Assembly: GCF_054482525.1 (NCBI RefSeq)
Contig: NZ_JBTHVG010000004.1
Strand: one strand, 5' to 3'
DNA from: a plasmid
DNA length: 64,000 nt
Numbering within the stretch: the first letter of the stretch is position 1; every line of letters starts with the position of its first letter. Below the pieces are notes generated by a model. The model was not told where the DNA came from and ran no database searches. It worked only from the letters and a program-made list of their open reading frames with translations. The translations under genes and the position numbers were made by a program. Positions 6,823 through 13,564 of the stretch are shown here, piece after piece.

Positions 6823-6865
6823 CCTGCATGCTCCATCTGATAATGTTCCGACAGCTAAAAATCAT

Positions 6866-6965
6866 ATCATGCATGATTTGTGTGCTCTTGATTTATGATA
6901 ATATCTGATATGGTTTTTTCATCAATGATGAAAATCATATCAGATATGATTTTATGTGTGTTTTT
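6866..6965. promoter_or_regulatory. Cluster of palindromes/inverted repeats (operator-like or recombination site)
   Basis: perfect palindrome atcatgcatgat; inverted repeats atatctgatat / atatcagatat; near-palindrome aaaatcatatcagatatgatttt. Confidence 0.4.
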
Positions 6966-7804: not shown

Positions 7805-8584
7805 ATGCAGCACCTGCCGGCACCGATCCACCATGCCCGGGATGCCGCTCAGCTTCCTGTTGCCATCGATTATCCGGCAGCGCTGGCACTCCGCCAGATG
7901 TCGATGGTTCATGATGAACTGCCAAAATACCTGCTGGCCCCTGAAGTGAGCGCCCTGCTCCATTACGTCCCGGATCTGCGCCGCAAGATGCTGCTGGCCA
8001 CACTGTGGAACACCGGTGCGCGCATTAATGAAGCACTGGCGCTGACGCGGGGGGATTTTTCGCTCACGCCTCCGTATCCGTTTGTGCAGCTGGCCACTCT
8101 GAAGCAGCGGACCGAAAAAGCCGCCAGGACGGCAGGAAGAATGCCCGCCGGTCAGCAGACTCACCGGCTGGTTCCGCTCTCCGACGCCTGGTACGTCAGC
8201 CAGCTGCAGACGATGGTGGCCACACTGAAAATCCCCATGGAACGGCGTAATAAACGAACAGGCAGGACAGAGAAAGCGCGGATCTGGGAAGTGACGGACA
8301 GAACGGTCAGGACCTGGATTGGGGAGGCGGTTGCCGCCGCTGCCGCTGATGGTGTGACGTTCTCTGTCCCGGTCACGCCACATACGTTCCGCCATTCCTA
8401 TGCGATGCATATGCTGTATGCCGGTATACCGCTGAAGGTCCTGCAGAGTCTGATGGGGCATAAGTCCATCAGCTCAACGGAGGTCTACACGAAGGTGTTT
8501 GCACTGGATGTGGCTGCACGGCACCGGGTGCAGTTTTCGATGCCTGAGTCCGATGCGGTGTCTATGCTCAAAAGAATTCCATAA
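7805..8584 (+). CDS. resD: Site-specific tyrosine recombinase ResD (plasmid multimer resolution)
   Basis: start at internal Met (MQHLPAP...) of the track ORF; near-identical over most of its length to the F-plasmid ResD sequence as I recall it; C-terminal ..HTFRHSYA..LMGH.S...YT tyrosine-recombinase motifs. Confidence 0.85.
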   Translation: MQHLPAPIHHARDAAQLPVAIDYPAALALRQMSMVHDELPKYLLAPEVSALLHYVPDLRRKMLLATLWNTGARINEALALTRGDFSLTPPYPFVQLATLKQRTEKAARTAGRMPAGQQTHRLVPLSDAWYVSQLQTMVATLKIPMERRNKRTGRTEKARIWEVTDRTVRTWIGEAVAAAAADGVTFSVPVTPHTFRHSYAMHMLYAGIPLKVLQSLMGHKSISSTEVYTKVFALDVAARHRVQFSMPESDAVSMLKRIP

Positions 8585-8595
8585 GCTCTGACTTT

Positions 8596-8745
8596 TTTAA
8601 ATCCCTTTCGGATATCTCATGGATATATTATCGGTATTTCATATTCTGTTGACATGCAGGACCGGTATAGAGTAAAAAAACATCTATTGAGTACCTCTTG
8701 GATATCCGAAAGGTGTCTTATGGGGGCTTTATGGGTATTACATGT
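8596..8745. repeat. Iterated GGATATC/GGTAT-like repeats upstream of parA (centromere/operator-like)
   Basis: ggatatctcatggatatattatcggtat ... ttggatatccgaaaggtgtc; same motif recurs at 9412-9490 and 9806-9905. Confidence 0.4.
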
Positions 8746-8763
8746 GGATTCTGGAGATACACT

Positions 8764-9408
8764 ATGCCTGTTATTGCTAATACGCATCCCAAAGGTGGTG
8801 TGGGTAAGACAACTTCATCCGTAAACATTGTTGGTGAAATGAAGTCTGATACAGTTGATCTGGATACTCATACCGGGCTTTCTATCATTCTGGGGCTGAG
8901 ACCTGAAGGAAAAGAAATTTCCGTGAAAGTACCCAAAACAGTGGATGAGTTAATCGAAATTATGACTCCCTACAAGAACAGCGATAAGACGTTACTTATT
9001 GACTGTGGGGGATTTGACTCAGATCTTACCCGTACTGCGATTGCCTTTGCAGACTGCGTTATTGTCCCTTCAAAAGACTCCCTGACTGAACGTATTGGTT
9101 TGATGCATTTTGATGGAGTACTGGACGAAATCAGCTCTATCATGGGGACCGATATAACTGCTCACCTGTATCTCTGTAAAGTTAATCCTAACAAGAAGAA
9201 ATTCCCTAAGCTTGATGCAATCCTGCCATCGTTCAAACATCTGAAGCTGATGAAGAGCCGCATTTCTGCTCGTGCAGAATTTGAGGATGTCATTGAGACT
9301 GGGATGGGAATCACTGAGTCTGTTCATGGGCGCTATTCGGCAGGAGGTAAGGAAGTTATTGCCCTGATCGAAGAAATCAATCATCTGATTGAAAATAACA
9401 AACAGTAA
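8764..9408 (+). CDS. ParA-family partition ATPase (small, type Ib-like)
   Basis: deviant Walker A KGGVGKTT at N-terminus; start at Met23 of the track ORF. Confidence 0.8.
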   Translation: MPVIANTHPKGGVGKTTSSVNIVGEMKSDTVDLDTHTGLSIILGLRPEGKEISVKVPKTVDELIEIMTPYKNSDKTLLIDCGGFDSDLTRTAIAFADCVIVPSKDSLTERIGLMHFDGVLDEISSIMGTDITAHLYLCKVNPNKKKFPKLDAILPSFKHLKLMKSRISARAEFEDVIETGMGITESVHGRYSAGGKEVIALIEEINHLIENNKQ

Positions 9409-9411
9409 GGT

Positions 9412-9490
9412 GTGTCTATTGGGTATCCATATAGTATCCTTTGGGCTTTTAATGGATATCTTTTAAGTATCTAACAAACATCCTGGGTTA
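9412..9490. repeat. GGGTATCC/GGATATC repeat cluster between parA and partner gene
   Basis: gggtatccatatagtatcc ... atggatatcttttaagtatct. Confidence 0.35.
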
Positions 9491-9494
9491 TCTC

Positions 9495-9803
9495 ATGAGC
9501 AAAGCGAAATTTAGTGCACAGGCTGAAAAACTGAAAAACCTGGTGGATTCTGCCAGATTACAAACTTCTTCTTCTGCCGTAACAGCAACAGCCCCGTCTC
9601 AGCCAAATGAAGGTGCAGAGGAAGTTTCAGGTCGTCCCGTGGCTGCCAGGACGAAGGCTAAGAATCTTAAGGCCATACCGCTGTCGTATTTTGAAGCTCA
9701 TGCGGAACTTAAAGCGACCAGTAAAACATCTCTGGATTTTAGCTCATATATTATTGAGGCTATAAGAGAGAAGCTTGAACGTGATGGTGCAATAGGTCAA
9801 TAA
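9495..9803 (+). CDS. Small partition partner protein (ParG/RHH-like centromere-binding candidate)
   Basis: 102 aa immediately downstream of parA; C-terminal ..SLDFSSYIIEAIREKLERD resembles ribbon-helix-helix. Confidence 0.55.
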   Translation: MSKAKFSAQAEKLKNLVDSARLQTSSSAVTATAPSQPNEGAEEVSGRPVAARTKAKNLKAIPLSYFEAHAELKATSKTSLDFSSYIIEAIREKLERDGAIGQ

Positions 9804-9805
9804 AC

Positions 9806-9905
9806 TATCGGATACCTTAAGGGTATCTGATGTGTGTCTTTTAAATGCGTTATGGGGATTCTTCACATACCTAAAGAGTCCCCATTAGACATCTTTCTGT
9901 TTATG
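9806..9905. repeat. GGATACC/GGGTATC repeat cluster downstream of partition pair
   Basis: cggataccttaagggtatctgatg. Confidence 0.35.
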
Positions 9906-9959
9906 GTGACATGATTCGTCACCGCTTTCCTTTCCTCTCAGTTTCACCATTTCATTCCT

Positions 9960-10200
9960 TTTCCCCTAACCTGAACCATGATGTCCACGATGTTTTTATA
10001 TTGCATTTATGTATCACATATAACCTTCATAATGTTTTTGTATCTATGATTTCCTCTGGTCTTAAAGTTGTGTGTACAATGTACATGCAATTTATCGTGT
10101 TTTTATGTTGCATTTGTCCTTTCAGAAAGACCGTTTTTTCATTATAATTGAATATACATTGCATGTATGAAGCATGTTTGTTTTTTCTATTTGTTTATGA
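9960..10200. promoter_or_regulatory. AT-rich repeat-containing region upstream of parM (parC-like centromere/promoter candidate)
   Basis: short repeats of tgcattt / atgcaat / tgtacatgcaattta / atacattgcatgtatg. Confidence 0.35.
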
Positions 10201-10216
10201 GCAACGGAGACTGGTT

Positions 10217-11197
10217 ATGAAAATCTTTATTGATGATGGTTCTACCAACATTAAACTTGCCTGGTTGGAGGATGGTGACGTGAAAACGTTAATCAGCCCT
10301 AACAGCTTTAAACCGGAATGGTCTTTTAGTTTACTGGATGATGCTGCCCCGGCTAATTACGAGATCGACGGCGAGAAGTTTTCATTTGATCCATTAAGTG
10401 CTGATGCTGTCGTAACGACTGAAACACGCTATCAGTACAGTGATGTGAATGTTGTGGCCATTCAGCATGCGCTACAGCAGACCGGCCTGAAAGCGCAGCC
10501 TGTTGATGTCATCGTCACATTGCCGATCTCTGAATACCTTGACGCCAACAATCAGAAAAATAAGCAAAACATTGAAAGAAAGAAAAAAAATGTGATGCGT
10601 GAAGTACGGGTGCAGGGGAGTGATGCATTTGTTATTCGCAGTGTTTCCGTTCTTCCTGAAAGTATTCCCGCTGGTTTCAGTGTTCTTGCGGGGCTTGAGG
10701 ATGATGAATCCCTTTTGATCGTAGATCTCGGTGGTACAACTCTTGATGTGTCGCATGTTCGTAGCAAAATGACAGGGATTACAAAAACCTGGTGTGATCC
10801 AAATATCGGCGTGTCCCTGATTACATCCGGGGTTAAGGAACAGATGGCTGTACATGCTAATACAAGAGTGAGCTCATTCCAGGCTGACAATATCATTGTG
10901 CACCGTAATGAACCTGACTACCTTTCCCGTCGCATTTATAATGCTGAACAGCGTGAGTCTATCATTAATGTTATCAATGAACGGCAGAAGTTGCTTATTA
11001 AACGAGTTAATGATGTCATCAGCCGTTTCACCGACTATACACATGTAATGTGTGTTGGTGGTGGGGCTGAAATTGTGGCCGAGGCTGTGAAGAACCTGAC
11101 TAAGGTTCCTGATGAGCGCTTTTATCTGAGCTCATCCCCGCAGTTTGATTTAGTCATGGGAATGATAAAAATGAAAGGTGGTGTGACTAATGAGTGA
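10217..11197 (+). CDS. parM: Actin-like segregation ATPase ParM/StbA
   Basis: start MKIFIDDGSTNIKLAW with SD ggaga; strong similarity along its length to R1 ParM as recalled (..DLGGTTLD.., ..GGGAE..). Confidence 0.85.
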   Translation: MKIFIDDGSTNIKLAWLEDGDVKTLISPNSFKPEWSFSLLDDAAPANYEIDGEKFSFDPLSADAVVTTETRYQYSDVNVVAIQHALQQTGLKAQPVDVIVTLPISEYLDANNQKNKQNIERKKKNVMREVRVQGSDAFVIRSVSVLPESIPAGFSVLAGLEDDESLLIVDLGGTTLDVSHVRSKMTGITKTWCDPNIGVSLITSGVKEQMAVHANTRVSSFQADNIIVHRNEPDYLSRRIYNAEQRESIINVINERQKLLIKRVNDVISRFTDYTHVMCVGGGAEIVAEAVKNLTKVPDERFYLSSSPQFDLVMGMIKMKGGVTNE

Positions 11198-11606
11198 TGA
11201 AAATAAATCCAGACGCTGCTCATTTGAACTTTTCCCGGATGAACGGACAGGAGATAAGATAGCAGATGAGCTCATTGCAAATGAAAAACTGAAGGAGCGG
11301 GGACGTTTCATGCGCGCGATGTTAGTTACTGGTGCGGCGTTTGCAGCTATAGATAAACGTCTTCCTTTGCTGATATCGGAGTTACTGACAGAAAATACGA
11401 CTCTGGATGATATTAATAAGGTGATTTCCAGCGTGATACCAGGTGCTTTTTCGGTTGAAAAGAAATTGCTTGAATTACTGGAAAAACAATCTGGTCTCCA
11501 TACGTCTGTGGATTGCAGTACTCCTCCTACAGAGCAGAGTCTGTCGAGAAATGACGGTGAAGACCAGACCAGAAGAAACGCTGAAAATATGTTCGGAGAT
11601 GACTGA
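11190..11606 (+). CDS. parR: ParR/StbB adaptor protein
   Basis: 138 aa overlapping parM stop; N-terminal region resembles R1 ParR. Confidence 0.7.
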   Translation: MSDENKSRRCSFELFPDERTGDKIADELIANEKLKERGRFMRAMLVTGAAFAAIDKRLPLLISELLTENTTLDDINKVISSVIPGAFSVEKKLLELLEKQSGLHTSVDCSTPPTEQSLSRNDGEDQTRRNAENMFGDD

Positions 11607-11607
11607 A

Positions 11608-12882
11608 CTAACCCAGCCTGGCCAGGGGAATATCTCGCCATTTAGTTGTATAACACTGACTCAACATTTCCCGTTTCATTTGCCATTCAGGGGCGGTTCC
11701 TCGCCCCGCAAACCACACTTTCCCTTTTCCCGACTGGTTCAGTTCATCGAGTGTTTTCATTAACTTTTCACTGTTTTTACGGGGCTGGATTTCATCAAAT
11801 AATCCCGGCTGCGCTATACCCGATGGTGTGAAATCAGCCAGCATGACTCCTGCCTTCATATAGCGGTACCCTTCACGCCAGACATGGTTTAAGGCTCTGC
11901 ATGCGGCGGCAATAATGTCCCGGCTGTCCTGTGTGGGCAATGGAAGCTTTTCCACAGCGGCATTGCTGTAACAGGGTTCTTTTACTGCAAAGGGGGATGT
12001 CCGTACAAATGTCGTCACCTGCCGGCAATACTGAAGCTCCCCACGTAGTTTCTCTGCGGCCCGCTCTGCATACTGAACAACAGCCTGGTGCATGGCATCT
12101 TTGTCTGTGATTCGTTCACCAAAACTGCGACTACAGACAATCTGCTGTTTTGCCGGTGGTGCTTCTTCCAGGGATATGCAGGACTCGCCGTTGAGTTCGC
12201 GTACCGTACGCTCAAGAATGACGCTGAAGTTTTTCCGGATGAATGCCGTGTTAGCCTGCGCCAGCTGCAGTGCTGTGTTAATACCCAGTGCATTCAGCTT
12301 TTCCGTCAGTCTGCGTCCTACTCCCCAGACCTCACCAACTGGCTGCAGCCCCAGTAGCTTCAAGATCCGATTACGGTTTTCTGCCGTCAGCGCGACCACA
12401 CCGGAAAACTGTGGCCATTGCTTTGTTGCCCACTGTGCACTTTTAGCCAGCGTTTTTGTAGGCGCAATGCCCACCCCCATGGTGAGTCCTGTCCAGCTCT
12501 TTACCTGTTCCCTGAGCTGATGACCAAAAACCTCCGGAGAGATGCAACGGTTCACCCCCCGCAAATCAATGAACATTTCATCAATTGAGTAGGGCTCAAC
12601 TGCGGGAGAAAGCGACTCCAGAACAGCCATAACCCGTTGGCTCATGCTGTGGTACAGCGCATAATTGCTGGAAAATACATGTATTTTCTTCTCCAGGCGC
12701 ATTTGTCTCACCTGAAACCAGGGCTGCCCCATTCTGATGCCAAGGGCTTTTGCCTCCGGGCTGCGCGCGATCACACAGCCATCGTTATTGCTGAGTACGA
12801 TGACCGGTTCGTTGCGAAGGTCCGGGCGGAAAACTTTTTCACATGAGGCGTAGAAACTGTTGATATCAGCCAGTGCAAACAT
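11608..12882 (-). CDS. impB: Error-prone Y-family polymerase subunit ImpB (UmuC-like)
   Basis: 424 aa; N-terminal MFALADINSFYASCE..VLSNNDGCV typical of UmuC/DinB family. Confidence 0.9.
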   Translation of the reverse strand: MFALADINSFYASCEKVFRPDLRNEPVIVLSNNDGCVIARSPEAKALGIRMGQPWFQVRQMRLEKKIHVFSSNYALYHSMSQRVMAVLESLSPAVEPYSIDEMFIDLRGVNRCISPEVFGHQLREQVKSWTGLTMGVGIAPTKTLAKSAQWATKQWPQFSGVVALTAENRNRILKLLGLQPVGEVWGVGRRLTEKLNALGINTALQLAQANTAFIRKNFSVILERTVRELNGESCISLEEAPPAKQQIVCSRSFGERITDKDAMHQAVVQYAERAAEKLRGELQYCRQVTTFVRTSPFAVKEPCYSNAAVEKLPLPTQDSRDIIAAACRALNHVWREGYRYMKAGVMLADFTPSGIAQPGLFDEIQPRKNSEKLMKTLDELNQSGKGKVWFAGRGTAPEWQMKREMLSQCYTTKWRDIPLARLG

Positions 12883-13319
12883 CAGCGTAACTCCCGCGTC
12901 CTGTGTATCACGTGAGTGACAACACCAAAAATACAGATGTTTTCCGGATACAGTGTGCGGAACTCCGGGCTGTCTGAAACCGGCTCCAGTGCCGGGCGTG
13001 GGCGCAACAGCAGTCGTTTGACGGTGAACTCACCGTCGATCTCAGCGATAACGATGTCCCCGTGTTGTGGTTTTTCGGCCCTGTCCACTACCAGCAGATC
13101 ACCATTCTGCACGCCAGCCTGGTTCATCGATTCACCGCTGGCGCGCAGAAAGAAGGTGGCTGCAGGTCTGCTGATGCAATAGCTGTTCAGATCCAGTTCC
13201 TGCTCAGCATAATCAGTGGCAGGCGAAGGAAAACCGGCCTGGCAACGATCGGCAAACAACGGGCGCACGTAACTGTCATCGCCTGAAGGGTCAGCCGGAC
13301 GGTGATAAACGGTACTCAT
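12882..13319 (-). CDS. impA: ImpA (UmuD-like, LexA/S24 peptidase fold)
   Basis: 145 aa; overlaps impB start; S24-type motifs. Confidence 0.85.
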   Translation of the reverse strand: MSTVYHRPADPSGDDSYVRPLFADRCQAGFPSPATDYAEQELDLNSYCISRPAATFFLRASGESMNQAGVQNGDLLVVDRAEKPQHGDIVIAEIDGEFTVKRLLLRPRPALEPVSDSPEFRTLYPENICIFGVVTHVIHRTRELR

Positions 13320-13564
13320 GCTGCAGGCAGCCAGCTGTCGTCCTGCCAGATTTCTTCCAGCAGAGACAGGATACGTTCTTTATCCTTGTCTCTGCGGGCT
13401 CCTGTGACAGATACAGACGGGGCGCTGCCCTGGTCTATACGCAGCCAGATTTCCGGGTAGTGTGGTTTCAGACGTTGTTCGATTTCATTCTGTAGCGCCT
13501 GAAGTGTGCCTGATTTGAGGTTTTTTGTGCTCTGGCGGTCGAAAAGAATTTCAATGCGGATCAT
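13316..13564 (-). CDS. impC: ImpC, small first gene of impCAB operon
   Basis: start taken at internal Met (MIRIEILF..) so that the LexA box lies upstream; overlaps impA start. Confidence 0.65.
   Translation of the reverse strand: MIRIEILFDRQSTKNLKSGTLQALQNEIEQRLKPHYPEIWLRIDQGSAPSVSVTGARRDKDKERILSLLEEIWQDDSWLPAA

Follow-up and report, generated by a model that had tools for sequence, protein, structure and literature searches.

Organization of the partition region

We analyzed positions 8596-11606 of a 64,000-nt stretch of plasmid DNA (contig NZ_JBTHVG010000004.1 of the NCBI RefSeq assembly GCF_054482525.1), and this whole stretch is referred to as the window. The segment consists of two independent plasmid-segregation cassettes in the maintenance region of an IncI (R64-type) E. 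coli resistance plasmid, where it lies between resD and impCAB. Cassette 1 (8606-9898) comprises the gene of a Walker-type ParA ATPase, the gene of a 102-aa partner, and three arrays of short repeats, while cassette 2 (9990-11606) comprises an AT-rich region followed by parM and parR. A prediction made earlier from the bare DNA letters (the original prediction) had described two different partition systems in tandem, a Walker-type ParA and an actin-type ParM/ParR, and the matches in Pfam, NCBIfam, and PDB agreed with this description and with the placement of all four genes.

The region 8400-11800 and the corresponding coordinates of the E. coli plasmid NZ_CP093549.1 were 100% identical, and this conjugative host plasmid was typed as IncI-gamma/K1, MOBP, and MPF_I. 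As R64, the archetypal IncI1 plasmid, encodes an identical ParA (YefA, WP_001144036.1) and an identical partner (YegA, WP_000030199.1), the feature sits in a long-sequenced backbone and is not a rarity of the window. The local gene order in an R64-named Japanese record is yedA, resD, yefA, yegA, 'parA', 'parB', impB, impA, and impC. The original prediction had missed that this is standard R64 backbone (yefA and yegA) and that a double locus of type I and type II is known from pB171.

The Walker-type ATPase and its small partner

The parA gene of cassette 1 (yefA in R64; 8764-9408, + strand) encodes a 214-aa type Ib Walker ATPase. YefA matched the Pfam families AAA_31, MipZ (5.7e-6), and CbiA, and its match to the NCBIfam model ParA_partition (1.6e-14) was below the cut-off of that model. 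The protein carries a deviant Walker A motif (KGGVGKTT, residues 10-17) and a DCGGFDS motif, and it has no N-terminal helix-turn-helix domain. Its length, the signature lysine of its Walker A motif, and the missing N-terminal domain are those of a type Ib ParA (approximately 200-230 aa). Eight residues (K10, G11, G12, G14, K15, D80, G83, and P102) were invariant in an alignment of nine ParA proteins, which included those of pESBL and pB171.

The partner gene (yegA in R64; 9495-9803, + strand) begins 86 bp past parA and encodes a 102-aa candidate centromere-binding protein. Like the small partners of type Ib systems, YegA contains no ParBc domain. It had no significant match in Pfam, NCBIfam, or PDB and is thus not a classical ParB, just as the original prediction had it. 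Searches of PDB with phmmer and hmmsearch, using the single sequence and the alignments A1 and A4, returned nothing meaningful, and the sole recurrent Pfam signal was a weak one to DUF3950. From an exhaustive profile search, the YegA family was found to comprise approximately 60 clusters at 50% identity, with lengths of 70-118 aa and a conserved domain at the C-terminus. The alignment consists of a conserved N-terminal helix (residues 6-19) with an A-x-L motif, a variable linker of low complexity, and a C-terminal domain of approximately 45 aa, in which K56, P62, T78, and YI-EA-REKL are conserved. The C-terminal pattern of the family can be written as K-x-K-x-h-x-x-h-P-x-x-(Y/F)-F-x-x-H-x-x-L-K-x-x-G-K-T-S-L-x-F-S-x-Y-I-x-E-A-x-R-E-K-L.

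The AlphaFold monomer model of YegA has helices at residues 6-19, 65-74, and 79-97, and the segment before the two C-terminal helices has no assigned structure. A ribbon-helix-helix (RHH) fold is plausible for YegA, with which the strand-helix-helix pattern agrees. For the fold itself, the label 'RHH-like' of the original prediction is putative (pLDDT of 45 for the fused-dimer model; hhalign probability of 0.1-0.2% against ParG, the sequence of which was verified against 1P94).

Repeat arrays of cassette 1

The motif GGRTAYC had 37 strand matches in the 64 kb of the window, compared with 21 ± 5 in shuffled sequences. Eight of these matches fell within 361 bp of intergenic DNA, made up of the three stretches around and within the ParA module, where approximately 0.16 were expected (about 50-fold enrichment; Poisson P of about 1e-11). 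GGATATC-type repeats around the ParA module, as originally claimed, are thus present. When listed in an 11-bp register, the repeats were found to be 11-bp-phased iterons with the approximate consensus nnaTGGrTATC (core approximately TGGrTATC), arranged in three arrays. The self-identity at a shift of 11 bp was 0.44, compared with 0.27 ± 0.025 in shuffles (z = 6.9), with echoes at 22 and 33 bp, and the phasing signal was absent from the parA coding sequence in the same autocorrelation analysis. Because the near-palindromic cores made the site caller based on expectation maximization and a position weight matrix (PWM) noisy, the register listing and the autocorrelation were preferred. Arrays of short repeats thus adjoin the operon, as in type Ib systems. 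The three repeat clusters of the original prediction were recovered, although their description had overlooked that the units are phased at 11 bp and that three units at the downstream end are inverted.

The upstream array is divided into two sub-arrays on the + strand. Sub-array A (8606-8642) has three units at 11-bp spacing (TCGGATATC, ATGGATATA, and ATCGGTATT), with PWM sites at 8608, 8619, and 8630 and an exact GGATATC at 8610. Sub-array B (8696-8761), a likely operator region between a putative promoter and the parA start codon, has six units in the 11-bp register. This putative parA promoter (8649-8678, + strand), located between the two sub-arrays, is composed of TTGACA (8649-8654) and TAAAAA (8673-8678), which are separated by 18 nt in which an iteron-like GGTATA occurs. 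A 13-nt perfect inverted repeat pairs 8604-8616 with 8701-8713.

The intercistronic array (9406-9493, + strand) has eight units in exact 11-bp register, with exact motifs at 9421/9422 and 9454. The downstream array (9806-9898) has five direct units (9806-9860) followed by three inverted units (9866-9898), and exact motif matches were observed at 9810 and 9821. A 31-nt inverted repeat of 81% identity pairs 8708-8738 with 9867-9897 and thereby connects the array just ahead of parA to the inverted units at the opposite end, such that mirror-image arrays bracket the cassette. The two leading iterons of the downstream array (GGATACC ttaa GGGTATC, 9806-9832) are complementary to each other and are followed by a T-run; hence, they also score as a hairpin resembling an intrinsic terminator, placed where the parA-yegA operon ends.

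Conservation of the layout and co-variation of the repeat core

Homologs of YegA were retrieved by tblastn from 1,336 plasmids, of which approximately 1,100 encoded proteins at least 95% identical to the 102-aa query, and the remainder formed a divergent tail. YefA and YegA were both at least 99% conserved in approximately 970 PLSDB plasmids. Five divergent loci were selected for comparison, from a Klebsiella IncFII plasmid (L005), Yersinia (L006), a Klebsiella MOBC plasmid (L007), K. quasipneumoniae (L008), and Aeromonas (L009). The identities to the window in this order were 83, 63, 45, 32, and 38% for ParA and 72, 47, 45, 42, and 38% for the partner. The partner gene follows the ParA gene after 53-95 bp in all five.

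Repeat arrays were located upstream of, between, and downstream of the two genes in four of the five loci, and upstream and between only in the Aeromonas locus. All five loci had an 11-bp periodicity, with z values of 5.4-6.9 except in Aeromonas (2.4). The repeat cores were GGrTrTC in L005, GTATaTx in L006, GGAwwTC in L007, GTACATA in L008, and GTACAyC in L009. In L005, residues 56-65 of the partner (KNLKAIPLSY) are identical to those in the window and the core is nearly the same, whereas loci in which this segment is substituted have different cores. A conserved array layout, with a core that co-varies with the partner, is the pattern to be expected for a protein that binds DNA and for the sites it recognizes. 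The reading of the repeats as centromere or operator sites bound by the partner draws chiefly on this pattern (six loci, no formal test). The view of the original prediction that the repeats are centromere candidates is strengthened by the layout being kept while the core differs in each of the five divergent loci.

Neither ParMR nor any other annotated partition system was found within approximately 5-7 kb around the cassette in L005-L009. Most of these loci also have no resD or adjoining recombinase gene, while L007 has a tyrosine recombinase gene approximately 0.8 kb upstream. One of the plasmids is non-mobilizable, and one cassette is located near repA. The ParA gene, the partner gene, and the arrays thus travel as an autonomous unit, as they occur without ParMR, mostly without a recombinase, and in one case on a non-mobilizable plasmid. 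When three further loci (L012, L013, and L014) were included, the partner gene directly followed the upstream gene in eight of eight loci other than the window. The upstream gene was an annotated or Pfam-typed ParA in six of them (L005-L009 and L012) and an untyped, contig-truncated open reading frame in L013 and L014.

The ParM/ParR module

Cassette 2 was unambiguously typed as a standard ParM/ParR (type II) module, with an actin-fold ParM ATPase and a ParR adaptor gene directly downstream. The parM gene ('parA' in R64; 10217-11197, + strand) encodes a 326-aa actin-like segregation ATPase, which matched the Pfam families StbA_N (5e-82) and ParM C-terminal domain (2.5e-72) and the R1 ParM structures 1MWK and 4A62 (E of about 1e-103). 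The parR gene ('parB' in R64; StbB family; 11190-11606, + strand) overlaps parM by 8 nt and encodes a 138-aa adaptor, which matched Plasmid_stab_B (PF10784) at 7.7e-28 and the pB171 ParR structure 2JD3 at 1.6e-6 over residues 1-85.

The GC content of the 357-bp region upstream of parM drops to 28% (10000-10199). A 13-bp motif, AYRTTGCATKTRT, has its only three perfect copies of the window here, on the + strand at 9998, 10105, and 10156, and an inverted copy with two mismatches is located at 10081 (- strand); the pattern was derived from its own copies, and the count is thus descriptive. The copies surround a promoter-like sequence, TTCAGA-16 nt-TATAAT (10121-10148), which matches at 10 of 12 positions. 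By analogy with R1 and pB171, the AT-rich region 9990-10216 (+ strand) is a reasonable candidate for the promoter region and for a parC bound by ParR. In a comparison aimed at the region upstream of ParMR, relatives were either at least 98% identical or matched inside parM only, and no diverged one kept upstream DNA that could be aligned. The third iteron array of cassette 1 ends approximately 100 bp from the first parC-like motif.

Comparison with known partition systems

The principle of the locus is textbook knowledge, namely a type Ib ParA with a small centromere-binding protein and iterons, neighbored by a ParMRC as in pB171. As both plasmids are IncI, identity with the par system of pESBL was the first candidate. 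The type Ib par system of pESBL (IncI1) was characterized by Tn-seq, stabilization of mini-F, GFP-ParB foci, and electrophoretic mobility shift assays on octamer repeats; its 100-aa ParB has no detectable motif and binds repeat arrays located on either side of the operon, and deletion of par causes no visible loss unless pnd and oriT are also removed (Daniel et al. 2020, PMC7602700). The pESBL parA-parB pair occupies the same backbone slot adjoining impB. However, its ParA is only 24% identical to YefA, and its ParB has no significant similarity to YegA (BLASTP E = 0.77; hhalign probability of 3.4%). The pESBL parS is a contiguous 8-bp tandem of GATAACAA, of which no octamer array was found in the window, whereas the window iterons are spaced at 11 bp with a GGATATC core. 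The pESBL genes overlap, leaving no room for an intercistronic array, and no ParMR follows them. Identity was ruled out by these differences in ParA, ParB, and parS. An N-terminal G-x-x-A-x-L motif of YegA (VGSARLQ, residues 13-23) was aligned by hhalign, non-significantly, with GGTAGLD (residues 18-24) of pESBL ParB, the gene of which lies at 495-797 on the - strand in locus L003; the shared motif could be a ParA-contact motif or a chance resemblance.

The plasmid pB171 reportedly has a double par locus, in which par1 is ParMRC and par2 is ParABC. The pB171-type locus that we read (L010) has the order ccdAB, resD, par2 and par1 in divergent orientation, impA, and impC. It resembles the window in having a type II and a type Ib system side by side in the same resD to impA/impC neighborhood, in centromere arrays on both sides of parAB, and in a homologous ParR (2JD3 family), and its ParM is 37% identical to that of the window. 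It differs in that its operons are divergent and share a central parC1, while those of the window are in tandem, and in that its type Ib repeats are short (e.g., ACTTCA/CACATC) with no intercistronic array. Identity with pB171 par2 was rejected, as ParA was 19% identical (E = 3e-4, a generic match) and ParB gave no alignment (hhalign probability of 0.6%). The hhalign alignments of YegA with the ParB proteins of pESBL and pB171 were co-linear with the strand-helix-GK-helix pattern, but they were non-significant and were not taken as evidence.

In the type Ib system delta/omega of pSM19035, a small RHH protein binds arrays upstream of the ATPase and binding-protein genes, which serve as operators and centromeres. 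By description, cassette 1 is similar in having repeat arrays upstream of both the ATPase and the binding-protein genes, but pSM19035 is Gram-positive and its repeats are contiguous 7-bp heptads. The type Ib ParF/ParG/parH system of TP228 likewise combines a small Walker ATPase with a small partner (the RHH protein ParG, 1P94), in which a domain for dimerization and DNA binding at the C-terminus follows a flexible N-terminal tail; however, ParG has no profile similarity to YegA. In TP228, parH is located upstream only. Judged by sequence comparison, YegA is unrelated to the tested partners of pESBL, pB171 par2, and TP228.

Cassette 2 resembles ParMRC of R1 in its ParM (at the E value given above), in the overlap of parR with parM, and in the AT-rich repeat region with a promoter-like sequence upstream of parM. 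It differs in that R1 parC has two blocks of five 11-bp iterons, while the candidate in the window has 3+1 irregular 13-bp motifs, and in that the sequence link of its ParR is to pB171 ParR. The 11-bp iteron spacing of cassette 1 resembles that of R1 parC.

The resD/impCAB slot of the backbone (7805-13564, adjoining impCAB and following resD where this is present) is occupied in different plasmids by type Ib cassettes of at least three unrelated kinds, namely the R64, pESBL, and pB171 types. ParMR at this slot is present in some plasmids, missing from others, and found in either orientation. The slot looks like a hot spot for the exchange of partition cassettes, with which the low GC content of both par modules (0.40-0.45, compared with 0.60 for resD and 0.53 for impB) fits. 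The R64-type and pESBL-type partners were of roughly equal frequency among PLSDB records (1,336 and 1,493, respectively).

Proposed mechanism and alternative explanations

We consider cassette 1 to be a functional type Ib ParABS-like partition system with a probability of roughly 0.8. The gene identities, the intact ATPase motifs, the statistics and phasing of the arrays, and the co-variation of arrays and partners among loci are observations, and from these we infer DNA binding by YegA, its fold, autoregulation, and the contributions of the cassettes to plasmid stability. YegA, probably as dimers, would bind each core TGGrTATC of approximately 7-9 bp, one per helical turn (11 bp), and would thereby cover all three arrays, which lie on both sides of the operon and between its two genes. 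Occupation of the arrays around the putative promoter would lead to autorepression, and centromere function would be performed by the nucleoprotein complex as a whole. Through its conserved N-terminal helix, YegA may contact and stimulate YefA, which as YefA-ATP would reside on the nucleoid, and the nucleoid-bound ParA would then position the plasmid copies. In cassette 2, which would act as a ParMRC system, ParR would bind the repeats in the AT-rich region upstream of parM and then cap the ParM actin-like filaments that push plasmids apart.

Several observations weigh against a functional partition role of cassette 1 or against parts of the mechanism. The putative parA promoter has a weak -10 element and was not called by a stricter promoter scan; the layout TTGAC(A/T)-18 nt-TA(A/T)A(A/T)A also precedes parA in L005 and L006. 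Degeneracy affects many of the iteron units, and there is some circularity in the site counts obtained with the PWM. The fused-dimer model of YegA, with its pLDDT of 45, does not support the fold. In the distant members L013 and L014, the partner gene abuts or overlaps the untyped upstream gene with no gap, and the intercistronic array is therefore restricted to a single subclade. In the searchable literature, including that on R64 and IncI1 partition, no experiment on YefA or YegA was found, and a 2026 IncI1 preprint mentions no more than that 'parM/parB' are lost when large deletions occur. The neighboring ParMR could make the ParA cassette redundant, and a stability phenotype may be masked, as the par deletion in pESBL was silent unless pnd and oriT were gone.

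One alternative is that the ParA/YegA cassette persists as a relic, redundant or in decay, in which the repeats are only operators for autorepression and segregation is carried out by ParMR together with toxin-antitoxin and conjugation. R1 is segregated by ParMRC alone, the arrays in the window partly overlap the putative promoter, and in pESBL the phenotype of the par deletion is masked by post-segregational killing and re-transfer. We regard a relic as unlikely, as both genes are intact with all ATPase motifs invariant, the proteins are conserved at the level given above in approximately 970 plasmids, the pair is the only annotated partition system in its surroundings in the five divergent loci, and an operator role is not apparent for the downstream arrays. 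For a short and degenerate motif in AT-rich intergenic regions of 39-44% GC, chance matches would be conceivable, but this explanation has a negligible probability; it is rejected by the statistics of the eight matches, and the 11-bp autocorrelation with its harmonics, a phasing that recurs in five independent loci, argues against it too.

The product of the tyrosine recombinase gene resD (7805-8584) was considered as another ligand of the repeats, which would then be binding or crossover sites of a multimer-resolution site and not a centromere. Resolution sites often hold accessory repeats, and the first array begins only 22 bp past the resD stop codon. A resolution site is nevertheless very improbable, since the arrays flank ParA and the partner with no adjoining recombinase gene in L006, L008, and L009, the core changes with the partner protein and not with a recombinase, and three arrays around a two-gene operon are unlike the anatomy of resolution sites. 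The same low standing is given to YefA and YegA as a conjugation accessory pair like VirC1/VirC2 or as a MipZ-like system positioning a non-plasmid cargo. This explanation draws on weak Pfam matches of YefA to VirC1 (E = 0.096) and MipZ and on the conjugative nature of the host plasmid. However, these matches are generic to the ParA/MinD superfamily, with VirC1 far below the cut-off, homologous cassettes are found on a non-mobilizable plasmid and beside replication genes, and the cassette in the window lies in the maintenance block from resD to impCAB and not among transfer genes. No PADLOC matches were obtained, and a role as a defence system was rejected on the same grounds.

A functional partition cassette being the preferred reading, we also considered a wider proposal, which is speculative and in our view doubtful. 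YefA/YegA would found an uncharacterized type Ib family with a centromere split into three arrays phased at one helical turn, with one array within the operon; the third array in IncI1/R64 plasmids abuts the candidate parC region of ParMR, and the two machines might be cross-regulated or form one composite complex. If true, such cross-regulation or a composite complex would explain why approximately 1,000 sequenced plasmids keep both machines.

Significance, annotation, and neighboring features

As far as the searchable literature shows, three points are new or previously unrecorded, namely that the R64-type yefA/yegA pair is a probable type Ib partition system, that it differs from the system of pESBL, and that its putative centromere, phased at 11 bp, is made up of three arrays of which one is intercistronic. 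The finding leaves the known principles of partition unchanged. Plasmids of the IncI1, IncI-gamma, and related groups are major carriers of ESBL/AmpC resistance genes, and as the tested IncI par system (pESBL) differs from that of R64 and approximately 1,100 PLSDB plasmids, statements on an 'IncI par locus' are not transferable between them. The loci with co-varying partners and iterons provide a ready-made system for studying the evolution of centromere specificity and partition incompatibility.

The NCBI records often label members of the YegA family as 'molecular chaperone GroEL', 'chaperonin', or 'hypothetical protein', while the proteins have no similarity to GroEL and no Pfam domain. The R64-style annotation also swaps the types, with the Walker ATPase YefA designated 'type II' and ParM/ParR designated 'type I parA/parB'. 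Both the naming of YegA and the swapped par types should be corrected.

Two other features of the window were noted. An AT-rich segment upstream of yedA-resD (6857-6953) contains palindromic repeats of approximately 22 nt (AAAATCATATCA..TGATTT) at 6858-6879 and 6931-6952, together with a 90% inverted repeat that pairs 6898-6917 with 6931-6950, and these palindromic repeats could be an operator or the resolution site of ResD. Near repA (1981-2540), the annotation of NZ_CP093549.1 places a pair of an RHH antitoxin and a RelE/ParE toxin, which is a further maintenance module.

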